A stretch of DNA of 64,000 bases from an uncultured Anaerolineales bacterium. GTDB lineage: Bacteria; Chloroflexota; Anaerolineae; UBA2200. Numbering within the stretch: the first letter of the stretch is position 1; every line of letters begins with the position of its first letter. The stretch lies in NCBI GenBank assembly GCA_964478075.1, contig CAYZGO010000004.1, forward strand, positions 60,492-124,491. The letters run 5' to 3'. Shown here piece by piece: positions 26,333 through 60,664 of the stretch. Under the pieces are notes generated by a model. It saw only the letters and a program-made list of their open reading frames with translations, ran no database searches and was not told the origin of the DNA. A program made the position numbers and the translations under genes.

Positions 26333-26356
26333 GATATGTCCAGGCGTCAAATCAAC

Positions 26357-32645: not shown

Positions 32646-32851
32646 TTCATCTCCTCCCTTGTGCAAAGCGACGTGATACGTAGCACTGGCTCACAGGTTT
32701 ACTAACATTATCTTACCACGAAAGTGCCAGATTGTCAACGTAAGCTAATCTGAGACTTACCTGCAAGTTTACCAAGGATTCGGTCACCGGCGGTGGCAGA
32801 CACGACGGGGTTTCAACCTAAGCCGGCGCTGTAGGTCAGATTGGGAGCAAA

Positions 32852-34570: not shown

Positions 34571-35809
34571 TCACTTCCGCCGCCACAGAGCGCTGACGCG
34601 ACCCAGCAGCGCATTGCCGCAACTAATCACTGCGCCAAGTGCAACCAAGCCAGTGGCCGGCAGCACACGCGCCAGTGCCCCACCAATCATCCCCGAGAAG
34701 GAGCCGCAGCCTGGTGCGATCATGTTCCAGATGCCAAAGACTCGCCCCAGGACTTCCTGCGGCACCCGCTCCTGCATCAACGACGCCCCACAAGTGGGAA
34801 TCAGGTTCCCAATCATGCTGGCGAAAAAGCTCGCTACCAGAGCCGGAGCTAACGCACGAAACAAGGGATAGCCGATCAGCGACAGGCCATAACCGAGCCA
34901 GCCCAATACTATGAGCCGCTCCTTATGCAAGCTGCGACCCAGGCGCCCCAGCCACAATGCCCCCAGCAACATGCCTGCGTAGCCTGCTGTCCGTATGTAG
35001 CCATACACTTCCGGCCCAGCATGCAGAACATCCTTCACGAAAAGCGGCACTCCCACCATCACCATGCCATCAGCCAGGACAAAGTACAAAGCGTCGAGCA
35101 AGAGAATGCTACGTACTACCGGGTCATGCCAGACATAGGACACACCCTCCAGCAAGTCGCGCCAGGACAGGGGCTGCCTCTCCTCCGTCTGAACTGCCTG
35201 GGACGGCAATCTCAACGATGACAGCAACAACGCGGAGAGAATCAGTGTCCCGCCATGGATAGCAAAAGCGTTAGCGAGGCCAAGTGCCTGCACAACAGGC
35301 CCGACGAGAGCGGTACCGGCGATCATGGCCAGGCCAACAAGAACCACGTTGGCTGAATTCGCAGTCACGATCTCTTCTTTGGGCACAATCTGCGGGAGGA
35401 TGGAAGAGCGCGCCAGGTAATACAGCAGGCCCGACGCAGAGAGAAGAAAAGCTATCAGCAGTGCGTGCCATCCGGCCAGGACGCCCACGGCGGAAAGGAT
35501 GGGCACAGCCACAGTGAGCAAGGCCGCCAACATATTGACAGCTATCATCAGGCGGCGCCGGTCGAGTCGGTCCACCAGCGTTCCAGAGGGCACCGCAAGA
35601 AGCAAAAAGGGCAGATACCTGGCTGTCGTCGCCCAACCTACTGCGCTTTTGGATCCCGTGACGTCCAGCATCAGCCATGGCAGGATAGTTATATACAAGC
35701 TTTGGCCGACCCACATCAAGACCGCGCTGCCCAGCAACGTACGGTATGCAGGATTGCATGCCAGTGCACGATATCCACTGGGGGAGACGGCAGGGGATTG
35801 TCCCTCCAT
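34571..35809 (-). CDS. MFS transporter (DHA3/EntS-like)
   Basis: 12 predicted TMs. MFS signature region GTLVDRLDRRRLM between TM2 and TM3. Confidence 0.8.
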   Translation of the reverse strand: MEGQSPAVSPSGYRALACNPAYRTLLGSAVLMWVGQSLYITILPWLMLDVTGSKSAVGWATTARYLPFLLLAVPSGTLVDRLDRRRLMIAVNMLAALLTVAVPILSAVGVLAGWHALLIAFLLSASGLLYYLARSSILPQIVPKEEIVTANSANVVLVGLAMIAGTALVGPVVQALGLANAFAIHGGTLILSALLLSSLRLPSQAVQTEERQPLSWRDLLEGVSYVWHDPVVRSILLLDALYFVLADGMVMVGVPLFVKDVLHAGPEVYGYIRTAGYAGMLLGALWLGRLGRSLHKERLIVLGWLGYGLSLIGYPLFRALAPALVASFFASMIGNLIPTCGASLMQERVPQEVLGRVFGIWNMIAPGCGSFSGMIGGALARVLPATGLVALGAVISCGNALLGRVSALWRRK

Positions 35810-38236: not shown

Positions 38237-38543
38237 GTCGGAATGTCATTCCGACGTACTATGCTGCGTCGGTCAGAGCTCGCTCCGTAAGTCGGAATGT
38301 CATTCCGACGTAGCACGCTCCGTCCGTCGGAGTTCGCCCCGTTGGTCGGAATGTCATTCCGACATAGCACGCTCCGTCCGTCGCAGCTCGCTCCGTTGGT
38401 CAGAATGTCATTCCGACTTAGCACCCTCCGTCCGTCGGAGTTCGCTCCGTTGGTCGGAATGACATTCCGACATAGCACGCTCCGTCCGTCGGAGTTCGCC
38501 CCGTTGGTCGGAATGTCATTCCGACTTACTACGACGTACTATG
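38237..38543. repeat. tandem array of a palindromic repeat with 54 bp periodicity, six copies of the 19-bp core, last unit partial (GTCGGAATGTCATTCCGAC core plus 35-bp near-identical linker); BIME/REP-array-like, adjacent to the second RAYT gene
   Basis: Six near-perfect 19-bp palindromes at 54-bp periodicity. The linkers are about 85% identical to each other, so they are not CRISPR spacers. All three forward frames stay open only because the unit is 18 codons. Confidence 0.8.
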
Positions 38544-39171
38544 TTGTGATGTATGTCCAGGGCCACGTTTCCCAATCAGAGGTCAGGCCCGCTTTTACCG
38601 GATTGTTGACTATGTACTGTACGATGCGGCCTAGTTCGTTCGCGTCCCGCACCACGTGATCATAACTTTCCGCCTGCCAGAACGTACCTTGCCGACCCAA
38701 GACCTTGTTTGCCTGTCGCGCCGTATGTCGTTTGAGGGATTGGAGGATCCGATGGAGGGCATAATACGTGCCGTCTTGACGTTGCAGCGGTGTACAGACC
38801 AAATGCACGTGATTGGGCATAATGCAAAATGCCAGTAGATCATATACCCGCCCGTGACGATAATGCAGGGCCTGAACAACCACCGTGGCCACTCGTGGGT
38901 CTGCTAGCCAGTGTGGGCCATACTCTGAAAAGTCTACGGCTGCGTCCCATAGCCCAAACGCGCGTCGCTCATCCAGATAGGCTTGCTTCTGGCGCTCTTG
39001 CGTGTCGCCGATGTGTGATAGCGCGCGTTCCTCTTGGTCGCGTTTTTCCTGCAACGCGGCGAGTACTGCACGCGGCAACGAGCCAGCAAGTCGGAAAGTG
39101 ACGAACAATGTTGCTCCGCCTGGCTGCCAATGCGGTAAATGGCGACGATAGAATACGCGATGGTCTGTCAT
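38539..39171 (-). CDS. REP-associated tyrosine transposase (RAYT, IS200-like Y1 HUH transposase), second and distinct family
   Basis: YRRHLPHWQPGGATLFVTFRL N-terminal RAYT motif, HUH motif CIMPNHVHLV, then GTFWQAESYDHVVRD and a catalytic Tyr region (VQYIVNNPVKAGL). Start at the ATG (MTDHR); the ORF track's TTG is 15 nt further up. Confidence 0.75.
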   Translation of the reverse strand: MTDHRVFYRRHLPHWQPGGATLFVTFRLAGSLPRAVLAALQEKRDQEERALSHIGDTQERQKQAYLDERRAFGLWDAAVDFSEYGPHWLADPRVATVVVQALHYRHGRVYDLLAFCIMPNHVHLVCTPLQRQDGTYYALHRILQSLKRHTARQANKVLGRQGTFWQAESYDHVVRDANELGRIVQYIVNNPVKAGLTSDWETWPWTYITT

Positions 39172-39195
39172 AGGCCGGATTGACAATCCGGCCTA
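39171..39195. repeat. perfect 12-bp palindrome TAGGCCGGATTG a CAATCCGGCCTA overlapping the RAYT start
   Basis: Seen directly at the 5' boundary of the second RAYT gene. Possible terminal hairpin or operator. Confidence 0.5.
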
Positions 39196-40076: not shown

Positions 40077-41207
40077 ATGATGCGTTGTGACGTCCTGGTA
40101 ACCGGCGGTGCGGGCTTTATCGGCTCACATCTGACCGATGCCCTGATCGCCGCCGGCCACAAAGTGCGCGTCTACGACAGTCTCGAAGCTCAGGTTCACG
40201 GTGAAGGCGCGCGTGCACCCTCTTACCTGAACCCTGAGGCAGAGTTCGTGGTCGCCAAGCTGGGAGATCGCCAGGCATTGACCAAAGCCCTGTCTGGTGT
40301 CAAAGTCGTGTTCCACCTCGCTGCCGCAGTCGGTGTGGGTCAGTCCATGTATCAGATTCAGCATTATGTAGAGTACAACACCCTGGGAGGCGCAATCCTG
40401 CTCGACATCCTGGCCACGGAGCGGCACCGCGTGCGAAAGTTGGTAGTAGCCTCCTCAATGTCAATCTATGGTGAGGGAGCTTATCATTGCACGCAATGTG
40501 GCAAAGTATACCCACCCCCACGCCCGCTGAGACAACTGAAGGCACGCGATTGGGAAATGCATTGCCCGACTTGTGGTCGCGTCGCAACGCCCCTCCCCAC
40601 CGCAGAAGACAAGGCACTCCAGCCCACATCCATCTATGCCATAACCAAACGTGACCATGAGGAGATGTTCATCTGCGTGGGCCGGGCGTACCGGCTGCCC
40701 GTGGTAGCTCTGCGCTTTTTCAACGTCTACGGTCCCCGGCAGGCGCTGTCCAATCCCTACACCGGAGTTGCAGCAATCTTCTCCGCACGCTTGCTCAATG
40801 ACCGGCCACCCGTCGTTTACGAGGACGGATTGCAGAGCCGTGACTTTGTGCACGTCAGCGATGCGGTACGTGCTGCCATCCTGGCCATGGAAAGCAAAGA
40901 GGCGGACTACGAGCCAATCAATGTGGGCACAGGGCATGCCACCACCATCCTCGACGTGGCACGGCTGCTGGCCGAGAAACTGCACAAGCAAGACCTCACA
41001 CCACAGATCAGAGGGCAGTTCCGCCAGGGCGACATCCGCCACTGCATCGCGGATACCACCAAGATTCGGGAGCGCCTGGGCTACGCGCCCCGTGTCTCCT
41101 ACGAAGATGGCATTGATGATCTCGTCACCTGGGTCAGCAGCCAGATAGCAGAGGATCGTTTCAGTGACGTGGAGTCGGCACTGAGCGCACGGAAACTCGT
41201 GGTATAG
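40077..41207 (+). CDS. NAD-dependent epimerase/dehydratase (extended SDR) with an inserted C4 zinc-ribbon
   Basis: GGAGFIGSHL Rossmann motif and YxxxK (YAITK) catalytic dyad. An insert of about 40 aa, CTQCGKVYPPP...CPTCGRV, sits between the conserved segments. Confidence 0.8.
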   Translation: MMRCDVLVTGGAGFIGSHLTDALIAAGHKVRVYDSLEAQVHGEGARAPSYLNPEAEFVVAKLGDRQALTKALSGVKVVFHLAAAVGVGQSMYQIQHYVEYNTLGGAILLDILATERHRVRKLVVASSMSIYGEGAYHCTQCGKVYPPPRPLRQLKARDWEMHCPTCGRVATPLPTAEDKALQPTSIYAITKRDHEEMFICVGRAYRLPVVALRFFNVYGPRQALSNPYTGVAAIFSARLLNDRPPVVYEDGLQSRDFVHVSDAVRAAILAMESKEADYEPINVGTGHATTILDVARLLAEKLHKQDLTPQIRGQFRQGDIRHCIADTTKIRERLGYAPRVSYEDGIDDLVTWVSSQIAEDRFSDVESALSARKLVV

Positions 41208-41234
41208 GCAATCCCGGGGAGGACATGGCATACA

Positions 41235-42266
41235 ATGTCGATGCCGCGCATACTGGTCACGGGCGCAGCTGGATTCATGGGCAGTCACCTCGTTGATGCC
41301 CTGGTCAACGAATACAAAGTTCACGGTGTGGATGATTTGTCTGGAGGCTTCTGGCGCAATGTTAACCCTAAGAGCCACTTCACCAGGCTGGATCTGCGCC
41401 AGAAAGAAGCAACTGAACAGTACGTTGCCAGCGTGCGGCCTGAGGTTCTCTTCCACCTTGCTGCTGATGCTACCGAGGGCCGCAGCCAATTCACACCGAT
41501 TACCTGTACCGACTGCAATCTCATGGCTTACCTGCACACCCTGGTCCCGGCAATCCGCAATGGCCTGCACAAGGTCGTGTTGGCCAGTTCAATGAGTGTC
41601 TATGGTGCGCAAACACCACCCTTCGACGAAAACATGTCCATGGAGCCAGAGGACGTGTACGGCGTGTCTAAAACAGCGATGGAACAGATAACCCACATCC
41701 TGAGCGAGGTACATGGGTTTGCCTACACAATTATCCGACCGCACAATGTCTACGGGCCACGCCAGAATATCGCCGATCCGTACCGTAATGTTATCGGCAT
41801 CTTTATTAACTGTCTGCTGAACGACAAGAGCTTTTATATCTATAGCGACGGCGAACAGCGCCGTGCCTTCACCTACATAGACGACTTTACGCCCTACATG
41901 CTGAGAGCCGCTCTTGATGACAGGTGCGATGGCGAAGTGATCAACATTGGGCCGCGTGAGGAGCTGACCATCAACTCGCTCGCGGATTTGGTGCTGTCGC
42001 TTTTCTACGAAGGACAGGACATCCCTGACCACGTTCGTCCTGTCCACCTGCCCCCACGCCCTAAGGAAGTGCGTGATGCCTACTGCACTGATGAGAAGGC
42101 TCGACGCTTGCTGGGTTACCACGTGACCGTGAAACTGGAAGACGGCATCCGGCGCATGATCGCCTGGGCGAAGGAACTCGGGGCACAAGAACCCCGGTAC
42201 ATGGAAAACGGATTGGAAATCACCACATCCGCCACACCAGCTACGTGGACACAGAGGCTGATATAG
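41235..42266 (+). CDS. NAD-dependent epimerase/dehydratase (dTDP-glucose 4,6-dehydratase / UDP-glucuronate decarboxylase-like SDR)
   Basis: GAAGFMGSHL, YGVSK catalytic motif, 343 aa. Confidence 0.8.
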   Translation: MSMPRILVTGAAGFMGSHLVDALVNEYKVHGVDDLSGGFWRNVNPKSHFTRLDLRQKEATEQYVASVRPEVLFHLAADATEGRSQFTPITCTDCNLMAYLHTLVPAIRNGLHKVVLASSMSVYGAQTPPFDENMSMEPEDVYGVSKTAMEQITHILSEVHGFAYTIIRPHNVYGPRQNIADPYRNVIGIFINCLLNDKSFYIYSDGEQRRAFTYIDDFTPYMLRAALDDRCDGEVINIGPREELTINSLADLVLSLFYEGQDIPDHVRPVHLPPRPKEVRDAYCTDEKARRLLGYHVTVKLEDGIRRMIAWAKELGAQEPRYMENGLEITTSATPATWTQRLI

Positions 42267-42282
42267 CAATAGAGCATATGCC

Positions 42283-43539
42283 ATGAAAGTTGTAGTGGCC
42301 ATTTTCGAGCAATTGGTGCCAATCTCGGGCGGCGGCACGCCGCGCACCTCTCACATGGTGCACGCGCTGGTCAGGCGGGGGCATCAAGTTTACGTCGCTG
42401 CCGCCTTCGGGGTACATCCCGCAGAAGCATCCAGAGAGCTTGGGTGTGCAGGCATGCTTTCGCTTCCGCACGTCAGCCGACTGGATCACCGCAAGATGCT
42501 CAAGTACCTGTTCGTCTATCCGTGGAACATGCTGTGCCTTGCTCTCTACATCTGGCGCATACAGCCAGACGTTGTCGTGTCACATAACTCGGTTGCTGGC
42601 TTCGCGGCCCTGCTAGGCAAAACCCTGCACCGTCAGACCGTGACCGTGCTTGACCTGACCGACCTGCTGTTCGAGTACCTCGAAAGCTATCGCGCCCGCT
42701 GGGCATCGCCCGTACTATTGCTTGGACGAGCGCTGGAGCGGCACGCCATCCGCAAGTCGGATCATGTTGTGACGATCAGCAAAGCAATGCGCAGCATCCT
42801 CGTGCAAGACTATGAAGTGAGCGAGTCAAGAGTGGATGTCGTGCACGACGGCGTTGACTGCAACGTGTTCCACCCACAAGAGGCAAGCGCACTGCGACGT
42901 CAGGTCTCTCCCTGGGCGCGGCACATCTGCATCCTGCACGGCGTGATAGATCCACAGGATGGCCCTGAACTGCTCGTGGAGGCGGCTCCGCTGGTCCTAT
43001 CGCGATTCCCAAAGACGGCCTTCTGGTGGGTTGGCGATGGCGCTGCTGTGCCAAGGCTCAAGGCTCGCGCTGAACAATTGGATCTGAGCGACAGATTCTT
43101 CTTCTCCGGCTGGGTCAGACAGCAGGAGGTGACTAACTACATCAATGCCAGTGACCTGGGACTGGTAGTGCTGCCTGACATTCTGTCAGCGCGGGGGCGC
43201 GTCACCCTCAAGGAGTTCGAGTACTGGGCGTGCGGGAAAGCAGCGGTGCTGCCGCGCCTACCGGCGCTTCAGGAGATCATTCCAGAGGGCGAGGCATCAC
43301 TGTTCTACACGGCGGGCAACGCTGGCGACCTGGCCGAGAAGATCTGCGTTCTGCTGGCCGACGATGAGCGCAGAAAGGCTATGGGCCGACGCGGCCGGCA
43401 GATGGTGGCTGACCGCTTCGAATGGCGTGTGCTGACGGATGAACTGGCCCGCCTCTGCGAGAGCTACGCTACGCCCCAAGTCGCCAAGCACGACGCCGAT
43501 CCTGAATCGGGAGGTATCCATGAAAGTGCTAGTCACTAA
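42283..43539 (+). CDS. glycosyltransferase family 1 (GT4-type)
   Basis: GT-B architecture with a C-terminal EX7E-like region (KEFEYWACGKA...). 418 aa. Confidence 0.75.
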   Translation: MKVVVAIFEQLVPISGGGTPRTSHMVHALVRRGHQVYVAAAFGVHPAEASRELGCAGMLSLPHVSRLDHRKMLKYLFVYPWNMLCLALYIWRIQPDVVVSHNSVAGFAALLGKTLHRQTVTVLDLTDLLFEYLESYRARWASPVLLLGRALERHAIRKSDHVVTISKAMRSILVQDYEVSESRVDVVHDGVDCNVFHPQEASALRRQVSPWARHICILHGVIDPQDGPELLVEAAPLVLSRFPKTAFWWVGDGAAVPRLKARAEQLDLSDRFFFSGWVRQQEVTNYINASDLGLVVLPDILSARGRVTLKEFEYWACGKAAVLPRLPALQEIIPEGEASLFYTAGNAGDLAEKICVLLADDERRKAMGRRGRQMVADRFEWRVLTDELARLCESYATPQVAKHDADPESGGIHESASH

Positions 43540-44968
43540 CCCGCCTTGGCCTGGTGAAGGGTACGGGGCACGTTCGGACGTGCGCTGGCCTCACAAGCGG
43601 AAAGACAAGTACCTTGAGTACCCGATTTACCTGTCCTACACCGTGGCCGTGCTGGAAGAGGCGGGATTCGACGTTGCCTTCGTGGACGCAATCATGGAAG
43701 AACTCGACATCCCTGCCTTTGTGCAGAGAGTCAAGGGAATAAACCCCCGCCTGTTGGTAATGGAATGCTCCACGCCCTCGATACGGTACGACCTGCAGTC
43801 TGCAGCGGCTGTCAAGAGCGCCTTGCCCGACACCAGGATTGCGCTGGTGGGCTCACATGTCACCTTTTTCAGCAAAGACGTCCTGGCTGAGAACCCCGCC
43901 GTAGACGCCATCTGCCGGGGCGAGTTTGAGATCACCGTGCGCGAACTGGCACGTGCCATTGCGGAGGGGCGCGACTGGAGCACAGTAGAAGGGCTATCCT
44001 ATCGAGCTGGTGACAAAGTCGCAGCCAATCCCGACCGGCCGTTGATCGAGGACGTCGACAGTTTGCCGTTCCCTGCGCGGCACATAGTGCGCGACGACGG
44101 ATACCGAGCCGCCATCTACTCCGGCAAAAAGTGCACGGGGATGGTAAGTTCGCGTGGCTGTCCATATCACTGCACCTTCTGTGTATGGCCCAGCACTCTC
44201 TACGGTCACAGATTCCGTGCCCGCAGCGCCAACAACGTCGTTGATGAAATTGAGCAAGCGGCAACGCGCTACGGAATAGATGAGATCTACTTTGACGATG
44301 ACACGTTCACCATTGACAGAAAGAGGGTTTTGGAGATCTGCCGATTGATCAAGGAACGCGGCCTCCAGGTGTCCTGGATTTGCCAGGCACGAGTGGACAC
44401 TGTGGATCGCGAAATGCTGCTGGCTATGAAGGAGGCTGGGTGCCACTACATCCTGTTTGGTGTAGAGTCTGGCTCGCCGGAAATGCTCAAGATCATGAAG
44501 AAGCAAATCACGCTGGCCAAGGCGCGGGAGGCTTTTCGCCTGTGCAGTGAGTTGGGCATCAAGGCCCAGGCATTCTTCCTCTTCGGCATTCCTGGCGAGA
44601 CCCAGGAGACGATCAGACAAACGATCGAGTTTGCAAAGGAACTAGGCGCCTCCAGCACACAGTTCGCAGTGGCTATCCCCCAACCAGGCAGTGCACTTTA
44701 TCAGCAGTGTGTACAGAACAGCTGGTTGATCTTCAATGATTGGGAGGATTTCGCTTCCTGTAACGCTCTCATCGAGACACCGCAGCTATCACGAAAGGAA
44801 GCGGAGGAAGCACGGATACGGGCCTACCGTGAGTATTACTTCCGACCAACGTTTGTCTTGCGCGAAGCGCTGCGCATTCGTCACCCGCGCGACGTGAAAC
44901 GACTGCTGCGGGGAGCAATGTCGGTGCTGACCCGCATATCTTTCTTCCAGTCTGCACGCAGCTCATGA
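43520..44968 (+). CDS. B12-binding-domain radical SAM protein (class B radical SAM)
   Basis: N-terminal cobalamin-binding-like Rossmann region (VLVTNPPW...), then radical-SAM CxxxCxxC (CPYHCTFC) and a TIM-barrel region. Start ATG 43520 with a GGGAGGT RBS, overlapping the upstream gene by 20 nt. Confidence 0.8.
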   Translation: MKVLVTNPPWPGEGYGARSDVRWPHKRKDKYLEYPIYLSYTVAVLEEAGFDVAFVDAIMEELDIPAFVQRVKGINPRLLVMECSTPSIRYDLQSAAAVKSALPDTRIALVGSHVTFFSKDVLAENPAVDAICRGEFEITVRELARAIAEGRDWSTVEGLSYRAGDKVAANPDRPLIEDVDSLPFPARHIVRDDGYRAAIYSGKKCTGMVSSRGCPYHCTFCVWPSTLYGHRFRARSANNVVDEIEQAATRYGIDEIYFDDDTFTIDRKRVLEICRLIKERGLQVSWICQARVDTVDREMLLAMKEAGCHYILFGVESGSPEMLKIMKKQITLAKAREAFRLCSELGIKAQAFFLFGIPGETQETIRQTIEFAKELGASSTQFAVAIPQPGSALYQQCVQNSWLIFNDWEDFASCNALIETPQLSRKEAEEARIRAYREYYFRPTFVLREALRIRHPRDVKRLLRGAMSVLTRISFFQSARSS

Positions 44969-46251
44969 AGATCCTGTTGCTGGCTCCTTTCGATCTCTTC
45001 CCCCCGGTGCACGGGGGAAGCAGCATCGTTTACAACTTAATAAAGCACGCTGCCGCACGGCACAAAGTGAGCGCGCTCATCTCGCACCTTTACTCCCTCG
45101 GGAGACAGGTGGACCCCTCGTGCTCGAGCCCTCCAGGGCGAAGCTTCGAGGCCGAAGGCTTGAGCCCCCGTCGACCAGGGACGAACGGCCCCTTAGGGCG
45201 AAGCCTGGCTGCAGACAACGTCAACGTACATTACTGCCGGCGCTCGCCCTTCGACCGCTTGCGAGTGCTATCTTTCCTCGTCAATCCTTACTACTATCGC
45301 GCAGCCGAGCGCATATGCCGCCAGAGTCAACCCGATGTGATCCACTGCGAGACCCTGTGGCCTATCCTGGCAGGATGGCACTTGCGGCGCAAGTACCACG
45401 TGCCATTGCTTTGGGTCGAAGAGAACATCGAAGCACTCAAATTCGCCACTCTGGGGCGGCCAAGAATCATCACTTCACTGGTAGCAATAGTTGAGCGCTT
45501 TGCCTGCCAGCACGCCGATCACATCATCACGCTCACCGAGATTGACCAGGGGCATCTCAGAGAGCTGTATCACGTGCAAGCCGAGCGCGTGACCGTAATC
45601 ACGCCCAGTCCGGATCTGTCAGACTTTCAGTGGGACAAAACGGCCCGGTCCGCAACACGCAAACGCTATGGCTTGTCCCAGGAGGATGTGCTGCTGACCT
45701 TCGTGGGCAATATGAAGTACGAGCCCAACCAGCACGCTGTGCGTCGCATTGCGGACTGCATCTATCCTGCAGTGATGGACAGATATCCCAGCGCCAGATT
45801 TGTGGTCATCGGACAGGGAGCGGAGCACCTCACTGACTGCCGCCGCGACAACATCATCTTCGCTGGCTACGTAAGCCGCCAAGACCTGGTGGCACACCTG
45901 TCAGCTACCGACATCTTTCTGGTGCCTGTCGAAACCGGCTCTGGCATAAGAGTCAAGATTCTGGAGGCGGCAGCGTGCGGACGGGCAGTCGTGGCTACAA
46001 GAAAGGCTACGGAGGGCCTGGAGTTCTTCAACGACGACGAAATCGTGCGTGTAGAGGCAGTTGATCAGCGCTTCGTTGCCGCCGTTTTACGCCTGATCGA
46101 GGACGGGGCATTGCGCACCGCCATAGGCGCACGTGTCCAACTACGCACGAGGCGCGAGTTAGGATGGGACAAGACGTTAGCAGAGTATGAACAAGCGTGT
46201 GCGAAAGCCATCGCTGCCGCGCGAACACAAGGACGCCACGAGCCGGCATGA
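44965..46251 (+). CDS. glycosyltransferase family 1 (GT4-type) with a low-complexity insertion
   Basis: GT-B GT1 pattern with ETGSGIRVKILEAAACGRAVVAT near the C-terminus. Start overlaps the previous stop (ATGA). Confidence 0.75.
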   Translation: MKILLLAPFDLFPPVHGGSSIVYNLIKHAAARHKVSALISHLYSLGRQVDPSCSSPPGRSFEAEGLSPRRPGTNGPLGRSLAADNVNVHYCRRSPFDRLRVLSFLVNPYYYRAAERICRQSQPDVIHCETLWPILAGWHLRRKYHVPLLWVEENIEALKFATLGRPRIITSLVAIVERFACQHADHIITLTEIDQGHLRELYHVQAERVTVITPSPDLSDFQWDKTARSATRKRYGLSQEDVLLTFVGNMKYEPNQHAVRRIADCIYPAVMDRYPSARFVVIGQGAEHLTDCRRDNIIFAGYVSRQDLVAHLSATDIFLVPVETGSGIRVKILEAAACGRAVVATRKATEGLEFFNDDEIVRVEAVDQRFVAAVLRLIEDGALRTAIGARVQLRTRRELGWDKTLAEYEQACAKAIAAARTQGRHEPA

Positions 46252-47342
46252 ATAGACTGGCGATCGCTCTCAAGAACACGCCACTTCTCTTGCGCGGCGT
46301 CTATGAATACAACATCGCCAGCCGTTTTGGCCCGTTGCCGCCGCGTGAATGGATGTTTCCGGTTACCTACCGCTGTGATGCGCGGTGCGTGATGTGCAAT
46401 ATCTGGCAAAGCAGCAAGGCTGGTGAGCTGAGCATAGCGCAATGGAAGCACATACTCGATGATCGTCTGTTTGCTGGCATCGAGAGCATAAACCTGACTG
46501 GTGGGGAGCCCACCCTGCGTCGTGATCTGCCACAACTGGTGCAATTGCTGATAGACAAGCTGCCAGCCTTGCGGCGGTTGACGCTCACGACCAATGCTTT
46601 GAACAGCAGCCACGTCATCAATCACTGTGAGCAACTCGGTGAGCTCTGCGCAGGTCGTGGCATCAGCTACTTCGTCGGCGTCTCGCTGGACGCCATAGGC
46701 CCTCTGCACGACGAGATGCGGGGCATACCAGATGCCTTCGAAAAGGTGGAGTGCACGCTCGAAAGACTGCAGCGTCTCCGCGAACAAGGCAGGCTGCGGG
46801 TCGGTATCAACTGCACGCTCACCAGCCACAACCTGCACGACGCCAAGAACGTCCGCCAGTGGTGCGCTGAACGGGATTTGGAGGTCAACTTTATTATCGC
46901 TTCGTTCGCCGAAAGCTACTACGCAAACATCGAAGCCGCGAAGGACCTGGAAATCACAGCACAACAGCGCAGGGCGCTGATCGCTTTTCTGACCGAGCTG
47001 GCTGCACAGAAATCACTGGGGAACCTTGCCGCTTACTTTTACGCTGACGCAGCACGCATGATAGAAAGAGGAACGGCACGTACGACCCCTTGTGTATTCC
47101 AGAAAGATGCCTTCATCCTAGATGCTCGGGGAGACCTGCAGTACTGTATGTACAGCCGCAAGCTCGGCAACGTGCGCAAAGAGAGCGCAGCAGCTCTGTA
47201 CTATGCACCGCAGAACCTGGCCCACCGCCAAGAGATCATTGCGAGCAAATGCCAGAATTGCACAATCACCTGCTTCCTGGAACTCTGCCTGGCCAAGGAT
47301 GCGCTCAAGTACTTGAGATTCCTGCTCGGAAGGCGAACATGA
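46248..47342 (+). CDS. radical SAM protein with C-terminal Cys-rich (SPASM/twitch-like) region
   Basis: CDARCVMC (CxxxCxxC) near the N-terminus and a C-terminal CQNCTITC cluster. ATGA start/stop overlap with the upstream gene. Confidence 0.7.
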
Positions 47343-48109
47343 GTCAAGATCCTGTGCCTAACAACCTTGAACAACCGCGTGACGAATACCGTACCATACC
47401 CGAAGGAGGCTTGGCGGCCAATTTCTGGAACTATGTGCAGCGAGTGACAGGCGAGCGCTCGCTTGGTCGCTTTGTGTGGCAGGGCACTGTCCTGACGCTG
47501 CTGTACCGCCTGCCGACCATCTGGACATCTATTCTGCGTGGCATCATCTACCGCACCGTGCTTGGTGAGGTCGGCTCGTCTTGCCTGATCGAAGAAGACG
47601 TCCGCTTCCGTGTCCCACGACGCGTTTTCCTCGGCAGCCGGGTCTTCATAGGCCAGTACAGCCTTCTCAATGCAACCTGCAAGGACAGTTTCATCCGCCT
47701 GGGCAATGACGTGCACCTGGCCCGCTTCTGCACGCTCCGGGCGGGCAAGCGCGGCATCACTTTACACGATGGCGTGGGGATCAACCAATACACCTTCCTG
47801 GACGGCAATGGCGGGGTCGAAATCGGGCCAGATACACTCCTTTCGCCAGGGGTGCAATGTATCAGTGGCAACCACATCTTCGACAATCCTGACGTGCCCA
47901 TCAAGTACCAGGGCACTGAGTATGGTAAGATTACCATCGGTGAGGATTGCTGGCTGGGCACCAACGTGATTGTGCTACCAGGAGTCACCCTTGGGAGGGG
48001 CGCAGTCATTGGAGCAGGAGCCGTGGTAACAAAGGACATCCCTGCATACGGCATCGCGCTGGGCATCCCGGCCAAAGTGATTGGATTTCGAGGCGAGAAT
48101 GGCAAGTGA
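47339..48109 (+). CDS. hexapeptide-repeat (LbH) acyl/acetyltransferase
   Basis: Left-handed beta-helix hexapeptide repeats in the C-terminal half ([31 protein letters not shown]). ATGA overlap with the upstream gene. Confidence 0.75.
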
Positions 48110-49626
48110 GTACGGACTTGAGTGACGGCAACGGGACCCCTGATCTTGCCAGGCCCGCAGGCCAGTTGGCGCCAGGCATAGCCTTGGTGCTCGCTGGTCA
48201 GGCGTCTTTTGTGCTTTGCGGGTACCTGCTCCACTTTTACCTGAGCCGCGCCATTGGCCCAGTCGTTTTCGGCACGTATGGCGTGATCATAAACGTGTTA
48301 ACCTGGACGGAGAGCGTACTTGAGAGCGGCGTCCCCTGGGCAGTGCGCAGGTTTCTACCGGCGGATCCCAAAGCTTCCACCTCCATCCTGCGCGCTGGCC
48401 TTACGTGGCAAATGATCGTCACGACGGTACTCTATGCGATAACCATGCTTGCAGCGCCCTGGTTTGCGGGCGTCATTGGGGATAGCGGCCTGACCTTCCA
48501 CCTGCGCCTTGCGCTCACAGACCTGCTGCTGATGGCCCTGTATACTTTCTATCGCGCTGCACTCAACGGGTTCCGATTGTTCGCCGCACAGGGTGCATCC
48601 ATGGCCTCCTACGCTGTAGGTAAGCTGGCATTCAGCGCGCTGTTGGTGAAATTGGGCTACTCGCTGACAGGCGCACTCGTCGGCAACATTCTGGGAAGTC
48701 TGATAGGATGGCTGGCCACTTTCTTGCTGCTGAAACGTAGGATTGGATCGGAGCTGAGCCGCACTGCCGCAACAACTGCGCGTGCTTCCCGGCAGTACAA
48801 TGGGCGAACCATTCTGGGTTTCGCCCTCCCTACCGTGCTGTTCACACTTGCCAGCACATTCCTCACCAGCGTGGGCCTAGTCGCAGTAAAGGCGTTGGTA
48901 GCCGACGGCTCGCAGCTCGGTCATTACACTGCCGCCAACTATCTGGGCACCGCACCAACACTGCTGCTCGCAGCATTCTCACTGACGCTCTTCCCTCACC
49001 TAGCCAGCTCCATCGCTGCCAAGAATTGGAATCTGACGAGGACGTACATCCGTTCTGCCGTCCGCTATCTTGCTCTGGTGCTGATCCCTGGCACCTTCCT
49101 AGTGCTAGGCACCTCTCCACACCTCATATCCGTTGTCTATCCGAGACAGTATGCGGTGGCTGCCCCTCTGTTGAACCTGCTGATCATCAGCACAGGGCTC
49201 TACGCCCTGTACATGATCTTTGCCAATGTGATTCTCGCAGAAGGTCGGGTGTTCCTGGCACTGAGTATCCCCAGTGCACTGTTACCTGTGAGCCTGATGG
49301 CTACCTGGTATCTGACCAGGCAGCTCGGCCCGTCGGGCGCTGCGTATGCCGCCGTGCTGACCAAGGGACTGGCCGCACTAGCAACAGCCGTTTACGTGCT
49401 GCGGCATTATACAGTGCATCTGGACTGGACATCCCTGCTGCGGGTAAGCATAGCGTCATTGGGCATGTATGGCCTGACACGGCTCTACGTGGCACAGGGA
49501 GCACTGTTCTTGCCCTACTGTCTGGTTCTCGGCGCCATGTATCTGGCGCTGCTGTGCCTGCTAGGAGAGGTCAGTGTTAAGGATCTGCAGAAATGGCGCG
49601 CCGCCATATCAAGCGTGCTTCAATAA
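48106..49626 (+). CDS. polysaccharide biosynthesis protein / oligosaccharide flippase (MOP superfamily, Wzx-like)
   Basis: About 12-14 TM helices across the whole length. GTG start overlapping the upstream stop (GTGA). Confidence 0.7.
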
Positions 49627-49724
49627 AGGGTTGTTATGAAGTACCGCTTCGAGGACTGTTTTTCAGACGAGGATTGCAGCACAGTTCGGCAAGGTGAGGA
49701 GAATCGCATCAATAAGGACAGACT

Positions 49725-50666
49725 ATGAACAAAGAGCATGTGTATCTTTCCATTGTCATCCCAGTTTTCGACGAGGAAGCAAGCGTGCAGCCACTGCTGG
49801 AGGAGCTGGAGCCAGTACTGCAGTCACTGCATCGCCCCTATGAAGTCATCTTCGTGGACGACGGCAGCACTGACGGCTCGTTCGCAGCGCTGCAGCGATT
49901 GCACGACGCAAGCCCGGCCAACATCCGCGTTATTCGCTTCCGTCGCAACTTTGGCAAGACAGCAGCGCTGTCAGCGGGCTTCAAGCGTGCTCGAGGCGAA
50001 GTAGTGGTGACCATGGACGCCGATTTGCAGGACGACCCGCACGAGCTGCCAAAGCTGCTGCACAAGCTGGATGAAGGCTACGACCTAGTCACGGCCTGGA
50101 GAGAGCAGCGTCGGGATTCGCCATGGAAAACGCTCCTCTCGCGCATCTTCAACAGTACCGTTGCCCGGCTCACGGGTATCAAGCTGCACGATTTCAACTG
50201 CGGCTTCAAAGCCTACCGGCTGCAGGTGGCGCATGAACTCAAACTGTATGGTGACCTGCACCGCTTCATCCCGGTGCTGGCCTACTGGAAAGGCTTCACT
50301 GTCACCGAAGTTCCCGTTCTGCATCGCCCCAGGAGTTTTGGTCACTCCAAGTATGGGTGGCAGCGTATGGCGCGGGGCTTCTTCGACTTCCTGGTGGTAC
50401 TGTTCGTGACGCACTACCTGCGGCGGCCGCTCCAGTTGTTCGGCACGCTGGGCACCATCAGCTTGATCGTTGGCATCGTTCTCGGTCTCCACCTGACGTA
50501 CCTGTGGCTGTTCGGTCCTGGCATCGGCTGGCGTCCGGCGCTGTTCGTGGATATCCTGGCGGTTGTGGTTGGCGTGCAGCTAATAGCCATCGGTCTGCTC
50601 GGTGAAATGCTGCGCAACTTTGCCTACCGCAGCGAGGACGAATATTCAGTGCGCACCGAGCTCTGA
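49725..50666 (+). CDS. glycosyltransferase family 2, polyprenyl-phosphate sugar transferase type (DPM1/ArnC-like) with C-terminal TM helices
   Basis: SIVIPVFDEE...VIFVDDGSTDGS and DADLQD (DxD) motifs, two C-terminal TMs. Confidence 0.85.
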   Translation: MNKEHVYLSIVIPVFDEEASVQPLLEELEPVLQSLHRPYEVIFVDDGSTDGSFAALQRLHDASPANIRVIRFRRNFGKTAALSAGFKRARGEVVVTMDADLQDDPHELPKLLHKLDEGYDLVTAWREQRRDSPWKTLLSRIFNSTVARLTGIKLHDFNCGFKAYRLQVAHELKLYGDLHRFIPVLAYWKGFTVTEVPVLHRPRSFGHSKYGWQRMARGFFDFLVVLFVTHYLRRPLQLFGTLGTISLIVGIVLGLHLTYLWLFGPGIGWRPALFVDILAVVVGVQLIAIGLLGEMLRNFAYRSEDEYSVRTEL

Positions 50667-54861: not shown

Positions 54862-56400
54862 TCAGTCGTACTTGACTTTGTCGGTCACGTCAACGAGTTG
54901 ATAGGGATGTCTATAACTCGAGTAGTAGCTTTGGTCGTCCAACAAGCCATAATCTGTGTGAAGATAATAGTCAAAGATCAGTCTGAAGGTATTGACAGGG
55001 GTTATGGAATCATACAGAAGATCGCTGCCTCCTTGGGGTAGATAGTATGCATTAAAGATCCTCATCCTCTCCTTGAGCATAATCTCCGTTGGTTGTTCCC
55101 ACCCGGGACCTTTGGGGTGGCTAAAGGTTGAGGCGCCACCATGATCTGCTTGCAATACCACAATCGGCGGGACTTCTGAATTCGACAGTATCTCATCAAC
55201 GAGCATTTCCACTTTTTTGTTGACGAAAATGAGCTGATTCACATAGTTCTCTGTCTGCGTCCAGACCCATCCGCTCATCTTGAGTACTGTGTCTGCAACC
55301 GGTTCCCCATTCGCCCCAAACAAATAGGGCGGATGGGGAACAGTGATATGCGCAAGAACAAAACGCGGCCCTTCGATTCTATGCGTTACTTCAGCCAGTT
55401 TCGAGAAAGTGCCCTGCACCCTCTCTCTGGCGACGTCTCTAAGATATAGTCCGAAGGGATCTAGCATAGTCGTTTGAACCAACACTGTAAGGAATTCGTT
55501 TCCTATACCACACGCGATATCCAAATCGGCATACTGATTGCGATCCGTTGGCCCCCAGCCGGACCTGAAATTGACGAACTTGTACCCTCTCTCTTTCAGC
55601 AAACGCATTGCTTTGCTGTTTCTGATCATCTGATAAGGCACGCTCCGGTCTTGCGACCCTACTCCCAGTGTGTCACTCAGGTAGTTAACGTATTCCATGT
55701 TCAAGGATGATGACAGCGAAAGGAAAGTCGACGCGTAATTGCTCACGCTCTCGGAAGCTACATAGAAGCCTGCGTCTTCCAAATAGCTAGTGAATTCGCA
55801 GTTATCATAACCATAGATCTCCTGCAGCGTGCTCGAACTGGCATAGCCATCCAAGATGATGTAGTAAATGTCCGGAAGCGTTTGTGCTTCCCCTGCATTT
55901 GTCGTGGCAGCTTCTCCGCTCTCCGCGCTTCTGTCGTCCTGCCAGACAACCCTCGTTTTGAGCTTGTAGGCGCCAATGCTAATCAGAGACATCACAACCA
56001 GGGAAGCTGCCACAATGTTCACAAAGCGCGTGAGATTGTGCAAATCCCTGCGCGTCTTCAAGCAAAAGCCAGCGCCAAGAACAAAGACAATAGCTGAGCT
56101 TAGCAGAAGATACCTGGGCCTGCCAAGATCAAATGGGCCTATGACCAAACCGTCTATCACACTATGAATATGCCCGTACGAGAAGAAGAGTAGCAAGAAA
56201 AGGGAGACGATTAACCCCGCCTTTCGCGTGTTCCTCAAAACAAGACTCAATAACGAGAACAAGAGGAGAGCAACGCCGAGAGCGACTGCTATCGGGACGA
56301 GAGCCTCACTCAATAAGGCGGAACCTATGTTATTGGCATAGAGGGACAAGACGGGGTATACTGCAAAGAGCAGAGGGTGAATAACAACTGATTTATTCAT
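54862..56400 (-). CDS. LTA-synthase/sulfatase-like membrane protein (5 N-terminal TMs plus extracytoplasmic alkaline-phosphatase-superfamily domain)
   Basis: N-terminal polytopic region then DIYYIILDGYASS, the metal-binding start of a PF00884-type domain. Noticeably lower GC than the window average. Confidence 0.65.
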   Translation of the reverse strand: MNKSVVIHPLLFAVYPVLSLYANNIGSALLSEALVPIAVALGVALLLFSLLSLVLRNTRKAGLIVSLFLLLFFSYGHIHSVIDGLVIGPFDLGRPRYLLLSSAIVFVLGAGFCLKTRRDLHNLTRFVNIVAASLVVMSLISIGAYKLKTRVVWQDDRSAESGEAATTNAGEAQTLPDIYYIILDGYASSSTLQEIYGYDNCEFTSYLEDAGFYVASESVSNYASTFLSLSSSLNMEYVNYLSDTLGVGSQDRSVPYQMIRNSKAMRLLKERGYKFVNFRSGWGPTDRNQYADLDIACGIGNEFLTVLVQTTMLDPFGLYLRDVARERVQGTFSKLAEVTHRIEGPRFVLAHITVPHPPYLFGANGEPVADTVLKMSGWVWTQTENYVNQLIFVNKKVEMLVDEILSNSEVPPIVVLQADHGGASTFSHPKGPGWEQPTEIMLKERMRIFNAYYLPQGGSDLLYDSITPVNTFRLIFDYYLHTDYGLLDDQSYYSSYRHPYQLVDVTDKVKYD

Positions 56401-59089: not shown

Positions 59090-60664
59090 CTATCGCTTGC
59101 GCCCCAGCAGGATAACGTACCTAAAGTCACACAGCACGTCGTCGCCAGCGAGTGTCATGTTGTAGTACTGCTTGCCTGTCTCGTCCAGGTTCAAGTGCAT
59201 TTGCATGATCCTGTCCTGTTGCTCCTGGGGCAGCCCGCTGTTCTGCAGCCAGTTGCCGATGCTGACCTGTGGCGACGTATGCTTCAGCACCTGCTCGACC
59301 TGAAAACCCCCGCCTGTCATCAGCGCCACGAGGTCCTCTTCAAAAAACGTTAGTCGCTCCTCCTTCAGCGCGAACATGCGCGTGTACCAGTCCCCTAGCG
59401 AGCGGTCGGGCGGCACACCTTCCGAAAGCACCATCACGCCTCCTGGCTTCAGCACCCGGTAGCACTCCCTAATCGCTTGATCGCCACCCTCGATCAGGTG
59501 ATGGAAGATCATGCGCGCCATCACCTTGTCGAACCGCTTGTCGGGAAACCGCAGCTTGCGAACGTCTCCCTCTTCAAAGACCTCGTTCGCCACCCGTGAC
59601 GCCCAGGCAAGCGCCAGCATTTGCGGCGAGGTGTCAACACCCACCACCTCAGCCACGAACGGCGATACGGCATGCGCTACAGTGCCTGCGCCGGTGCCCA
59701 CGTCCAGTACCCGGTCCGTGGGTTGGAAATCCCCTGCTGCCACGAGAGCCTGCAAATATCCTTCCCGCCGGGCCCACTCAAGCTGTTCGTACCTCCTGGC
59801 TCTCACCGCCCAGAACTCCCGCTCCAGACCTCGCTCACCCGAAGTGTCCAACCACCGCCGGGCCCGCGCCAAGTCCTGGGGCGTGTCCAGTTCGGCCCAG
59901 TCCCCCCAGATATCTACCGGCTCCACGCACACGCCCAGGTCAATCAGCTCCTGAATCATGTCAGTCAGATAGGCCACCCGGATGTTCGGTGCCTTGTGGA
60001 ACGGGCGCGCCAGGTACTCGTCGCGGATCTCGTTGTAGCGGTCGCGCATTAGGCGCGCCGCCCCCTGGCTGAACTTGGCCAGGCCGATGAATTCCCCGTA
60101 GGCCTGTTCAGACGGCAGGTGTTTGCCGATCTCCACCACTCGTCCGTTGTCCACCACAACTTTCTCGGCCTGAGACTCTGGATGAAGAGTGCGGCCCATG
60201 TATGCCTTCCGCCAGTCCCGGTCCACCACCAGTGCAATCTCGGCGTCGCTGGCTGTCAGTCGCTGTGCCGCACTGCGCCGGTACACAATGTCAGAGTAGG
60301 ACACCACGACCGCCGTGTCCATCTCCGGCGCGGCGTACATGAGCGACTCCAGAATGTTATTGTCCGCCCACTCCGTATTATTGTAGAACCGCAGATGCGG
60401 GTAGGTCTGTACGACTTTCTCCACGTGGTACCCACCGATGAAGACGACGTCATCAATCCCGGCGTGCGCGAGCGAATCCAGAATCCAATCCAGCACACGC
60501 TGCGCCCCCACCCCATCCATCATACACTTCGGTATGCTTGCCGTCTCTGGCATCAGGCGGATGCCCCGTCCGGCTCCTATTATGATTGCTTTCATACCAC
60601 TATGAGCAGGACGAGACCCACTTGCATCCCGAAACGAGCTCGGGGTATTCCCGCTAGTCATCAT
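59090..60664 (-). CDS. bifunctional protein: N-terminal LicC-type nucleotidyltransferase (NTP_transf_3) fused to C-terminal class I SAM-dependent methyltransferase
   Basis: KAIIIGAGRGIRLMPETASIPKCMM (nucleotidyltransferase G-loop) then VLDVGTGAGTVAHAV...VLKPGGVMVL (methyltransferase motifs I and post-I). Alternative start ATG 60595 (MKAIIIG). Confidence 0.7.
   Translation of the reverse strand: MMTSGNTPSSFRDASGSRPAHSGMKAIIIGAGRGIRLMPETASIPKCMMDGVGAQRVLDWILDSLAHAGIDDVVFIGGYHVEKVVQTYPHLRFYNNTEWADNNILESLMYAAPEMDTAVVVSYSDIVYRRSAAQRLTASDAEIALVVDRDWRKAYMGRTLHPESQAEKVVVDNGRVVEIGKHLPSEQAYGEFIGLAKFSQGAARLMRDRYNEIRDEYLARPFHKAPNIRVAYLTDMIQELIDLGVCVEPVDIWGDWAELDTPQDLARARRWLDTSGERGLEREFWAVRARRYEQLEWARREGYLQALVAAGDFQPTDRVLDVGTGAGTVAHAVSPFVAEVVGVDTSPQMLALAWASRVANEVFEEGDVRKLRFPDKRFDKVMARMIFHHLIEGGDQAIRECYRVLKPGGVMVLSEGVPPDRSLGDWYTRMFALKEERLTFFEEDLVALMTGGGFQVEQVLKHTSPQVSIGNWLQNSGLPQEQQDRIMQMHLNLDETGKQYYNMTLAGDDVLCDFRYVILLGRKR

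Follow-up and report, generated by a model that had tools for sequence, protein, structure and literature searches.

A stretch of 64,000 nucleotides from an uncultured Anaerolineales bacterium of the phylum Chloroflexota (assembly GCA_964478075.1, contig CAYZGO010000004.1, positions 60,492 to 124,491), here called the window, contains a run of nine open reading frames (ORFs), all on the forward strand, between positions 40077 and 50666. Together they make up a glycan operon whose genes are translationally coupled and which encodes two distinct radical S-adenosylmethionine (SAM) enzymes, one that carries a B12-binding domain (B12-rSAM) and one that is twitch/SPASM-like (rSAM2). The remaining members are two extended short-chain dehydrogenases/reductases (SDR1zn, with a zinc-ribbon insert, and SDR2), two GT4-type glycosyltransferases (GT4a and GT4b), a hexapeptide acyltransferase (LbH), a flippase of the MOP superfamily and a GT2 polyprenyl-phosphate glycosyltransferase. 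The operon, its orientation and the domains of its products had been read from the sequence in an earlier note, and Pfam and NCBIfam searches of the window ORFs bear out all of them at the same coordinates (Table 1), with one correction of family: the genes labeled GT1 in that note do encode glycosyltransferases, but their Pfam domains are those of CAZy family GT4.

Table 1. Genes of the operon and the LtaS-like gene, with window coordinates and main assignments.
Gene	Coordinates	Strand	Assignment and profile scores
SDR1zn	40077-41207	+	Extended SDR, UDP-hexose/N-acetylhexosamine 4-epimerase-like; C4 zinc-ribbon insert at about residues 135-170
SDR2	41235-42266	+	Extended SDR, epimerase-like, without the insert
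GT4a	42283-43539	+	GT-B fold; Pfam Glyco_transf_4/Glycos_transf_1 (CAZy GT4-type)
B12-rSAM	43520-44968	+	PF02310, 57.7 bits (cutoff 32.1); PF04055, 101.5 bits
GT4b	44965-46251	+	Second GT4-type glycosyltransferase (Pfam)
rSAM2	46248-47342	+	PF04055, 53.4 bits; PF13186 SPASM, 19.5 bits against a cutoff of 21.5
LbH	47339-48109	+	Hexapeptide acyltransferase, WbbJ/WcaF/maltose-O-acetyltransferase-like; Pfam Hexapep, 59 bits
Flippase	48106-49626	+	MOP superfamily (Wzx/PST-type), GTG start; Polysacc_synt, 65.9 bits (cutoff 28.2); MurJ, 54.9 bits
GT2	49725-50666	+	Polyprenyl-phosphate glycosyltransferase, ArnC/PgfS/GtrB-like; Glycos_transf_2, 120 bits; about two C-terminal transmembrane helices
LtaS-like	54862-56400	-	Membrane protein; five N-terminal transmembrane helices and an extracytoplasmic alkaline-phosphatase/sulfatase-superfamily domain

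The coupling is evident in the junctions. The first two are gaps of 27 nt and then 16 nt, the next five all overlap, by 20 nt at 43520 and by 4 nt (ATGA/GTGA) at 44965, 46248, 47339 and 48106, and the GT2 gene starts 98 nt past the end of the flippase gene. Four of these overlaps had been noticed before, and all four are real, but the count was one short since the overlap at 44965 had been missed. Genes called independently on public contigs of identical sequence also start at 46248, 47339 and 48106, and the remaining starts are backed by the lengths and N-termini of homologues. Proteins identical to those of the window are also found on contigs of the Anaerolineae metagenome-assembled genome (MAG) GCA_034430235.1.

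The B12-rSAM protein has the layout of class B radical SAM enzymes, that is, an N-terminal B12-binding domain and a core with a CX3CX2C motif, whose cysteines (C214, C218 and C221) are invariant in the 13 sequences aligned. This layout is that of cobalamin-dependent enzymes, and cobalamin binding itself is predicted; AprD4 shares the domain layout and yet binds no cobalamin (PMC12931638). Among 18,950 NCBIfam profiles the best match is HpnJ (TIGR03471), with 351.3 bits and a collinear alignment of residues 1-469 to positions 1-463 of 472, a score that misses the curated cutoff of 577.6 bits, while a genuine HpnJ reaches 843.2 bits. The runners-up are BchE (208 bits), ApyD (194 bits) and AprD4 (180 bits, cutoff 500); the models of named methylases give at most 174 bits (Sden_1168), with PhpK at 138, HpnR at 119, the RiPP C-methyltransferase at 114 and KedN5 at 84, and the lipid-biosynthesis model TIGR04072 gives 126 bits. 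The ranking of profiles is the same in family members from the PVC group, Omnitrophota and archaea, and members from other phyla score 312-381 bits on the HpnJ model (312-331 bits in the PVC, Omnitrophota and Bathyarchaeia members).

In an end-to-end BLASTP alignment B12-rSAM is 35% identical to the genuine HpnJ of Paraburkholderia, and the matches listed (the top 15) to plasmid-borne B12-type radical SAM proteins are annotated hpnJ genes or unannotated, equally similar Burkholderiaceae loci. The conserved C-terminal helix, in which R461, R472, F475 and F476 are invariant, would suit membrane association, and the C-terminus of the Paraburkholderia HpnJ likewise has an FF pair. The possibility that the gene is a genuine hopanoid hpnJ was rejected, given the score below the HpnJ cutoff and the lack of hpn genes: no squalene-hopene cyclase (shc/hpnF), HpnH, HpnG, HpnI or HpnK was found when the window ORFs were scanned with Pfam and NCBIfam. 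B12-rSAM is an HpnJ-related enzyme, not an HpnJ equivalog, and it is the core of the module.

The closest solved relative is AprD4 (6fd2), both by sequence (146 bits) and by fold (TM-score 0.71/0.75 over the full length, 26% identity), and the solved methylases fall below it by sequence (MgmA, 79 bits; TokK, 71 bits). TsrM, OxsB, TokK, MgmA and CysS are also among the fold neighbors; the fold searches made for both radical SAM proteins confirm the enzyme class and do not separate the chemistries. In a library of 50%-identity cluster representatives the window's own family appears as a sole match at 45% identity, and many of the best-scoring relatives there are 900-2600 residues long with two to five matched stretches, that is, multi-radical-SAM fusions.

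The spread of the B12-rSAM family was followed in a scan limited to one genome for each species, which gave 65 loci, all from MAGs; the position of GT4a was counted in 63 de-duplicated loci, and the labels L001, L003, L005 and so on denote such related loci, which lie outside the window. The closest relatives have 65-99% identity in every match listed (n=120). Family members of Chloroflexota (Anaerolineae, Anaerolineales, Ardenticatenales and others) are 60-80% identical to the window protein, with 66-80% across the Anaerolineae MAGs, those of PVC-group, Omnitrophota, Aerophobetes, "Clostridia" and unclassified MAGs 55-61%, and those of two Bathyarchaeia (L052 and L059) 55-58%. The family is compact, large and very well conserved, and it is uncharacterised: literature searches that combined radical SAM or B12 with Anaerolineae, glycosyltransferase, polysaccharide, flippase or O-antigen found no paper on the family or the cluster.

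An association of GT4, B12-rSAM, acetyltransferase and GT2 extends across phyla. Homologues of GT4a (48-75% identity) end less than 400 nt before the B12-rSAM start in 41 of the 63 loci, often with a 4-nt overlap; homologues of LbH (41-77%) occur in 27 loci, PVC, Omnitrophota and Bathyarchaeia loci among them; and the ArnC/PgfS-like GT2 family is a neighbor in 30. GT2 homologues (49-63%) lie directly 3' of B12-rSAM in the PVC-type loci, which carry the minimal module LbH-GT4a-B12rSAM-GT2, and within 10 kb of it in many Anaerolineae loci. Other recurrent neighbors are SDRs (27 loci), PMT_2 GT-C enzymes (23), large GDSL/SGNH proteins (18), trans-polyprenyl synthases (15), MOP flippases (11) and several families of class I methyltransferases. 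L003 carries YfhO and LPG_synthase_TM proteins, and in L074 a polysaccharide deacetylase lies between a GT4 and an LbH acetyltransferase. In the Bathyarchaeia loci, GT2, APH-like kinase, LbH, GT4 and SDR genes follow 3' of B12-rSAM; APH-like kinases are present in L059 and L074.

Several singular arrangements were seen around family members. In L038, from a PVC-group MAG, a paralogous B12-rSAM (31% identity) is fused to LPG_synthase_TM (MprF flippase-like) in an 802-residue protein (2568-4976), which adjoins PMT_2 and GDSL/TPR genes and lies 5' of a GT4a-B12rSAM-GT2 module. In L036, L044 and L050 a divergent paralogue (29-35% identity) stands directly 5' of the family member, replacing GT4a. 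Both Bathyarchaeia loci have, directly 5' of B12-rSAM, a gene for a large PKD-repeat surface protein (L052, 7364-9982; L059, 62-2230), which may be the target of glycosylation. A few kb 5' of the cluster in L001 (1451-4586) are genes for a carbamoyltransferase (Carbam_trans_N/C), a GDSL/ALGX-like protein and a DUF5989 protein; at the matching place the window has an MFS transporter (34571-35809).

The window was further compared with its closest relatives L001, L005, L006 and L025. The synteny shows that the ancestral block of this clade is SDR2-GT4a-B12rSAM-GT4b-rSAM2-LbH-flippase. SDR1zn is not at the corresponding position in L001, L005 and L025, and in L001 and L006 the flippase is followed by a convergent LtaS-like gene (a 509-residue membrane protein) where the window has GT2; because the closest relatives lack them at those positions, SDR1zn and GT2 are additions at their positions in this genome, and homologues of both regularly neighbor B12-rSAM in other lineages. 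The LtaS-like gene, 63% identical to the convergent one of L001 and L006, is parted from the operon in the window by three unrelated genes and has been displaced by GT2-fpg-S58-pfkB.

The second radical SAM enzyme has a much narrower spread. Its family numbers just 142 proteins at E<=1e-10, and the places where its genes were located are limited to the window's clade, an Omnitrophota MAG (L060) that has the block B12rSAM-GT4b-rSAM2-LbH-Wzx in common with the window, and two further contigs (L073 and L074). There it occurs together with homologues of B12-rSAM (55% identity), LbH (56-62%), SDR2 (44-45%) and GT4b (36%). Since few lineages have rSAM2, the radical SAM genes do not form an obligate pair, and rSAM2 counts as accessory to the core module. 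In all seven contexts (window, L001, L005, L006, L060, L073 and L074) the gene directly 5' of rSAM2 is GT4b-like (36-62% identity), and in the window GT4b overlaps each of its neighbors by 4 nt.

In 76 sequences the rSAM2 cysteines C43, C47 and C50 are invariant, so that the CxxxCxxC motif, on whose presence the earlier note had made its reading depend, is invariant in both radical SAM proteins. C282, C300, C335 and C338 are also invariant and C342 is kept in 75 of the 76, in the pattern CX12GX4C...CX2CX3C, while C347 is not conserved; five auxiliary cysteines are therefore kept against seven in a full SPASM domain, which fits a twitch or partial SPASM domain with one, possibly two, predicted auxiliary clusters. 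The AlphaFold model (pLDDT 91.9) matches BlsE (top), anSME, SkfB and MoaA about equally well, with TM-scores of about 0.6 and 17-20% identity, and the sequence matches to BlsE are weak; GDGT-MAS is among the weak PDB matches. As regards substrates, the nearest characterised relatives of the two enzymes act on sugars (HpnJ and AprD4 for B12-rSAM; BlsE, the top fold match, for rSAM2), as would be expected from the earlier claim that both work in a sugar pathway.

Both SDRs have the Rossmann-fold motif GxxGxxG (GGAGFIGS/GAAGFMGS) and the catalytic S...YxxxK residues in SSMS(I/V)YG and YAITK/YGVSK (SSMSIYG and YAITK in SDR1zn), and in neither sequence is there the T-D-E motif of 4,6-dehydratases. 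The GalE equivalog model gives 145 bits for SDR1zn and 96.7 bits for SDR2, short of its cutoff of 262.3. In SDR1zn the Pfam Epimerase match (162 bits) is split by the insert, whose zinc-ribbon cysteines (C138, C141, C163 and C166) are kept in 22-23 of 23 homologues, so that the C4 zinc ribbon that had been described in this protein holds; its best PDB matches are UDP-sugar 4-epimerases (6wjb, 4zrm, 6dnt and, with 126 bits, MoeE5 6kv9). SDR2 (Epimerase, 169.5 bits) matches best the UDP-glucose 4-epimerase 4zrm (155.5 bits) and has homologues of 73-81% identity in L001, L005 and L025; those of L073 and L074 adjoin the B12-rSAM and rSAM2 genes.

For LbH the WbbJ (83.5 bits) and WcaF (81.1 bits) models of NCBIfam were matched, neither reaching its cutoff. 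Hydropathy gives the flippase about 12-13 hydrophobic segments. The catalytic domain of GT2 spans residues 9-171 by Pfam and its transmembrane segments lie by hydropathy at about 245-295; it scores 199 bits on the ArnC model NF007986 (cutoff 529), 154 bits on PgfS (cutoff 500) and 18.9 bits on HpnI. The LtaS-like protein has no Pfam match and no match in a PDB sequence search, and its class assignment rests only on its topology and the PF00884 (Sulfatase) domains that many of its homologues carry; PF01663, of the same superfamily, recurs in five related loci, and the LtaS-like gene probably belongs to the locus.

What type of pathway is this? The earlier note had spoken of a Wzx-dependent surface-glycan operon, and a Wzx-type MOP flippase, one of the marks of the Wzx/Wzy pathway, is indeed encoded, but Wzy and a priming phosphoglycosyltransferase are missing. 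No priming phosphoglycosyltransferase (WbaP/WecA type), Wzy or chain-length regulator was found among the window ORFs of at least 150 residues, where a divergent Wzy could hide among those without Pfam matches, and neither of the first two is among the annotated recurrent neighbor families of 66 related loci and the window. A canonical Wzx/Wzy O-antigen or capsule operon was rejected on these grounds. The relatives have instead an ArnC/PgfS-like GT2 with GT-C enzymes (PMT_2 and YfhO), LPG_synthase_TM and enzymes of the alkaline-phosphatase superfamily; without a priming phosphoglycosyltransferase and Wzy, the logic is that of polyprenyl-monophosphate or glycolipid pathways.

The radical chemistry can be considered in the light of three enzymes, HpnJ, Cds and PtmC, which have been proposed to contract sugar rings by a radical mechanism after glycosylation; HpnJ would contract the glucosamine ring of bacteriohopanetetrol (BHT)-glucosamine to give the cyclitol ether (PMC13459092; PMC9092360). 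For the window we infer a comparable scheme. The two epimerase-like SDRs would supply 4-epimerised UDP-sugars and GT4a would put a sugar on a membrane-bound acceptor, and B12-rSAM, read from the overlapping frame, would take a hydrogen from the sugar that GT4a has installed and, by a contraction of the HpnJ/Cds type, convert the pyranose into an ether-linked cyclopentitol. A second sugar would be attached by GT4b and may be oxidised, epimerised or decarboxylated by rSAM2 in the manner of BtrN and BlsE. The hexapeptide transferase would O-acetylate the product, the flippase would carry it out, and its attachment to the final acceptor could be the work of the LtaS-like phosphotransferase here and of GT-C enzymes in the relatives, while the ArnC/PgfS-like GT2 would make a polyprenyl-phosphate sugar for the same pathway.

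The genes, their coupling, the intact cofactor motifs and the association across phyla are observed, and the substrate, the chemistry and the order of steps belong to the proposal. What is proposed is, in brief, that two "glycosylate, then tailor" pairs assemble, on the cytoplasmic face, a membrane-bound (lipid-linked) glycan or glycolipid head group that is short and heavily tailored, with ring contraction or rearrangement as the favored chemistry. Taken as one statement this proposal is tentative, somewhat short of an even chance. Its component that a sugar already installed by a glycosyltransferase and bound to the membrane is tailored by radical chemistry is rather probable; that B12-rSAM performs a ring contraction or skeletal rearrangement is a possibility to be held with more reserve than the scheme as a whole; and the cell surface probably bears a chemically unusual sugar.

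Several observations weigh against ring contraction or against the proposed scheme. HpnJ activity has never been reconstituted in vitro (PMC9092360), and in a published similarity network HpnJ co-clusters at stringent thresholds with the C-methylases MoeK5 and Fom3 (PMC9204698). The identity of B12-rSAM to genuine HpnJ is just the 35% given above, and by phmmer the two share 246.6 bits, while the representatives of at least 150 uncharacterised clusters (50% identity) reach 294-475 bits, all above HpnJ, so that the function of HpnJ is not transferable with confidence; these representatives form a continuum of related clusters with no clean family boundary, which weakens any functional inference. 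The nearest solved structure, AprD4, is that of a dehydratase which does not bind cobalamin (PMC12931638), and Bathyarchaeota commonly have homologues of Gmm, a lipid methylase of the B12-type radical SAM class (PMC11214058). Deacetylase, hopanoid and tetraether genes are absent from the window. Given the APH-like kinases of L059 and L074, a nucleotide-sugar or soluble substrate is also conceivable, and the gene order near B12-rSAM differs between lineages, so that the order of steps is conjectural.

The earlier note had suggested a C-methylated or otherwise rearranged sugar. C-methylation would make B12-rSAM a cobalamin-dependent class B C-methyltransferase that gives the lipid-linked sugar a C-methyl branch, like those made by MoeK5 in moenomycin and by GenK in gentamicin, the other steps remaining unchanged. 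(MoeK5, GenK, Fom3, Cds, PtmC and Gmm enter these comparisons by description and not by sequence.) The majority of characterised B12-type radical SAM enzymes are methylases, the B12-binding match is solid (57.7 against 32.1 bits), the structural neighbors include TsrM, MgmA, TokK and CysS, and the clustering of HpnJ with MoeK5 and Fom3 (PMC9204698) points the same way, as does the fact that MoeK5 acts on a phosphoglycolipid-bound sugar and that MoeE5 is among the PDB matches of SDR1zn. The profiles speak otherwise, since the named methylases reach 84-174 bits, far under the 351 of HpnJ, in the same order in other phyla, and TokK and MgmA stand at 71 and 79 bits by sequence against 146 for AprD4; conventional class I methyltransferases recur in related loci, so that methylation would usually be done by other means, although this leaves room for C-methylation as well. 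Of the two outcomes named in the note, then, C-methylation is possible but is not the favored one, the highest scores being those of non-methylase profiles (HpnJ 351, BchE 208 and AprD4 180 bits), and we consider it unlikely, if still to be taken seriously.

The standing of AprD4 as the closest solved protein by sequence and fold, together with the 180 bits of its NCBIfam model, raises another possibility, namely that B12-rSAM is a cobalamin-independent radical 1,2-diol dehydratase and that one of the adjacent SDRs, in the role of AprD3, is the ketoreductase, giving a deoxy-sugar. SDR1zn or SDR2 homologues are often neighbors of the B12-rSAM family, but no SDR was detected beside the PVC-type LbH-GT4a-B12rSAM-GT2 modules, the best structural relatives of both SDRs are UDP-sugar 4-epimerases, and the AprD4 profile gives half the score of HpnJ, far under its 500-bit cutoff, all of which makes deoxygenation improbable. 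It is also conceivable that the radical SAM enzymes act not on a sugar but on the lipid portion, a polyprenyl or membrane-lipid chain, and methylate, cyclise or cross-link it in the manner of Gmm, HpnR/HpnP, Tes/GDGT-MAS and the ladderane enzymes. B12-type radical SAM lipid modifiers are numerous and Gmm homologues abundant in Bathyarchaeota (PMC11214058; PMC13459092), a trans-polyprenyl synthase is encoded in 15 related loci, TIGR04072 gives 126 bits on B12-rSAM and GDGT-MAS is a weak match of rSAM2; both radical SAM genes, however, are coupled to glycosyltransferase genes and not to genes of lipid synthesis, the window has no polyprenyl synthase, and the lipid-methylase profiles are the lowest of the B12 matches (HpnR, 119 bits), so that we regard this as very improbable. 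Ring contraction or rearrangement therefore ranks above C-methylation, deoxygenation and lipid-chain modification, in that order, and part of the probability is assigned to none of the four.

The favored reading, ring contraction or rearrangement of a membrane-bound sugar, owes most to the HpnJ/HpnI/HpnK system that makes the BHT cyclitol ether in Burkholderia and Methylobacterium. B12-rSAM and HpnJ are alike end to end in their B12-binding and radical SAM architecture, and the substrate of HpnJ is a sugar already on a membrane lipid, as is proposed for B12-rSAM. In the hpn locus of Paraburkholderia hpnJ overlaps hpnI by 4 nt and an LPG_synthase_TM gene comes next, which the window parallels in its overlap of radical SAM and glycosyltransferase genes and the related loci parallel in the LPG_synthase_TM gene of L003 and the fusion of L038; the deacetylase of L074 corresponds in role to HpnK, which acts ahead of HpnJ. 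The partner glycosyltransferase of the window is, in contrast, of GT4 type while HpnI is a GT2, and the hosts are here Anaerolineae, PVC and Bathyarchaeia MAGs. Cds of Sulfolobus and PtmC of the pactamycin pathway are proposed to turn a glycoside-bound hexose or hexosamine into a cyclopentitol (PMC13459092; PMC9092360), a likeness drawn by description only. The host of Cds is an archaeon, like those of L052 and L059, but most reported homologues of Cds come from acidophiles, and there is no sign of an acidic source for the MAGs considered here.

Other systems share single traits with the locus. AprD4/AprD3, which effect the C3' deoxygenation of apramycin, resemble it in the sugar-ring substrate and the oxidoreductase partner gene nearby, and differ in the soluble pseudodisaccharide substrate, the antibiotic pathway and the lack of cobalamin binding (PMC12931638). 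MoeK5 is a B12-type radical SAM enzyme that acts on a lipid-anchored sugar, in a cluster with several glycosyltransferases and a UDP-sugar 4-epimerase, but it is a methylase of a Streptomyces antibiotic cluster, without flippase or polyprenyl-phosphate GT2 logic. The three-component systems (ArnC-ArnE/F-ArnT, GtrA/B/V, CsbB-YfhO and PgfS/PgfE/PgfM) have in common with the operon a GT2 with transmembrane helices, an epimerase and a flippase, without a priming phosphoglycosyltransferase, and the YfhO and PMT_2 enzymes of the relatives recall them; the window, however, has no recognisable GT-C enzyme, and these systems move one unmodified or lightly modified sugar, whereas the operon adds to these parts two GT4 glycosyltransferases, both radical SAM enzymes and an acetyltransferase. 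With the sugar-acting twitch/SPASM enzymes BlsE and BtrN and with anSME, rSAM2 shares the CX3CX2C motif and the auxiliary-cluster motif, and with LtaS-type synthases the LtaS-like protein shares its topology of five transmembrane helices and an extracytoplasmic sulfatase-like domain.

As regards the setting of the operon, an IS200-like Y1 transposase fragment (38539-39186, reverse strand) and small ORFs without matches lie on its 5' side, and fpg, an S58 peptidase gene and a PfkB kinase gene, all convergent, lie on its 3' side. The transposase is located at a synteny break relative to L001, and its match to Y1_Tnp is of 27.7 bits; a second such ORF (6264-6842, forward strand) gives 29.7 bits. 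A recent foreign island was nevertheless rejected, as the GC content is even across the region (0.55-0.60). An Rfam search of the window gave a tRNA as its single match (23676-23748, reverse strand), with no cobalamin riboswitch or other RNA element, and a promoter and terminator scan of 38-57 kb gave counts no different from the shuffled expectation.

Elsewhere in the window, three adjacent surface-protein genes (24197-32666, reverse strand) with cohesin, dockerin, LysM and CarboxypepD_reg domains, one of 1693 residues, are a surface assembly of the cohesin-dockerin type. On the reverse strand there are also a galactokinase-like GHMP kinase (4779-6173), a GT9 heptosyltransferase-like protein that is unexpected for Chloroflexota (18296-19282) and a 524-residue fusion of MobA-like nucleotidyltransferase and class I SAM methyltransferase domains (59090-60664), and on the forward strand a sugar-1-phosphate nucleotidyltransferase (8941-9939) and a PF01663 phosphodiesterase-like protein (11539-13335); another methyltransferase is encoded at 62508-63518.

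Most known cases of sugars tailored by radical SAM enzymes belong to antibiotic pathways or to one of two lipid head groups, the BHT cyclitol ether and calditol. The locus is best described as an instance of this known theme, the radical SAM tailoring of glycosides, in a polyprenyl-phosphate context of the Arn/Gtr/Pgf kind and with a new element in its uncharacterised, unusually conserved enzyme family. A bolder proposal, which we consider doubtful though worth stating, is that besides HpnJ and Cds there is a third and far wider lineage of enzymes that contract sugar rings, namely the B12-rSAM family, which would convert a GT4-installed hexose on a membrane carrier into a hydrolysis-resistant, ether-linked cyclopentitol that is acetylated and exported, the module having spread horizontally across two domains of life. 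If this were true, carbocyclic pseudo-sugars would be common, yet overlooked, in the envelopes of uncultured Anaerolineae, PVC/Omnitrophota and Bathyarchaeia, and the window's clade would add a second radical tailoring step on a neighboring sugar.

The hosts dominate anaerobic digesters, sediments and sludge, and their surface chemistry is barely known. With GT4 and radical SAM genes so tightly coupled, a minimal system of two genes is available for heterologous tests, and knowledge of the product would extend B12-type radical SAM chemistry by a reaction, or at least by a class of substrates, and would provide a structural handle on the envelope of the Anaerolineae, possibly a diagnostic lipid or glycan biomarker.

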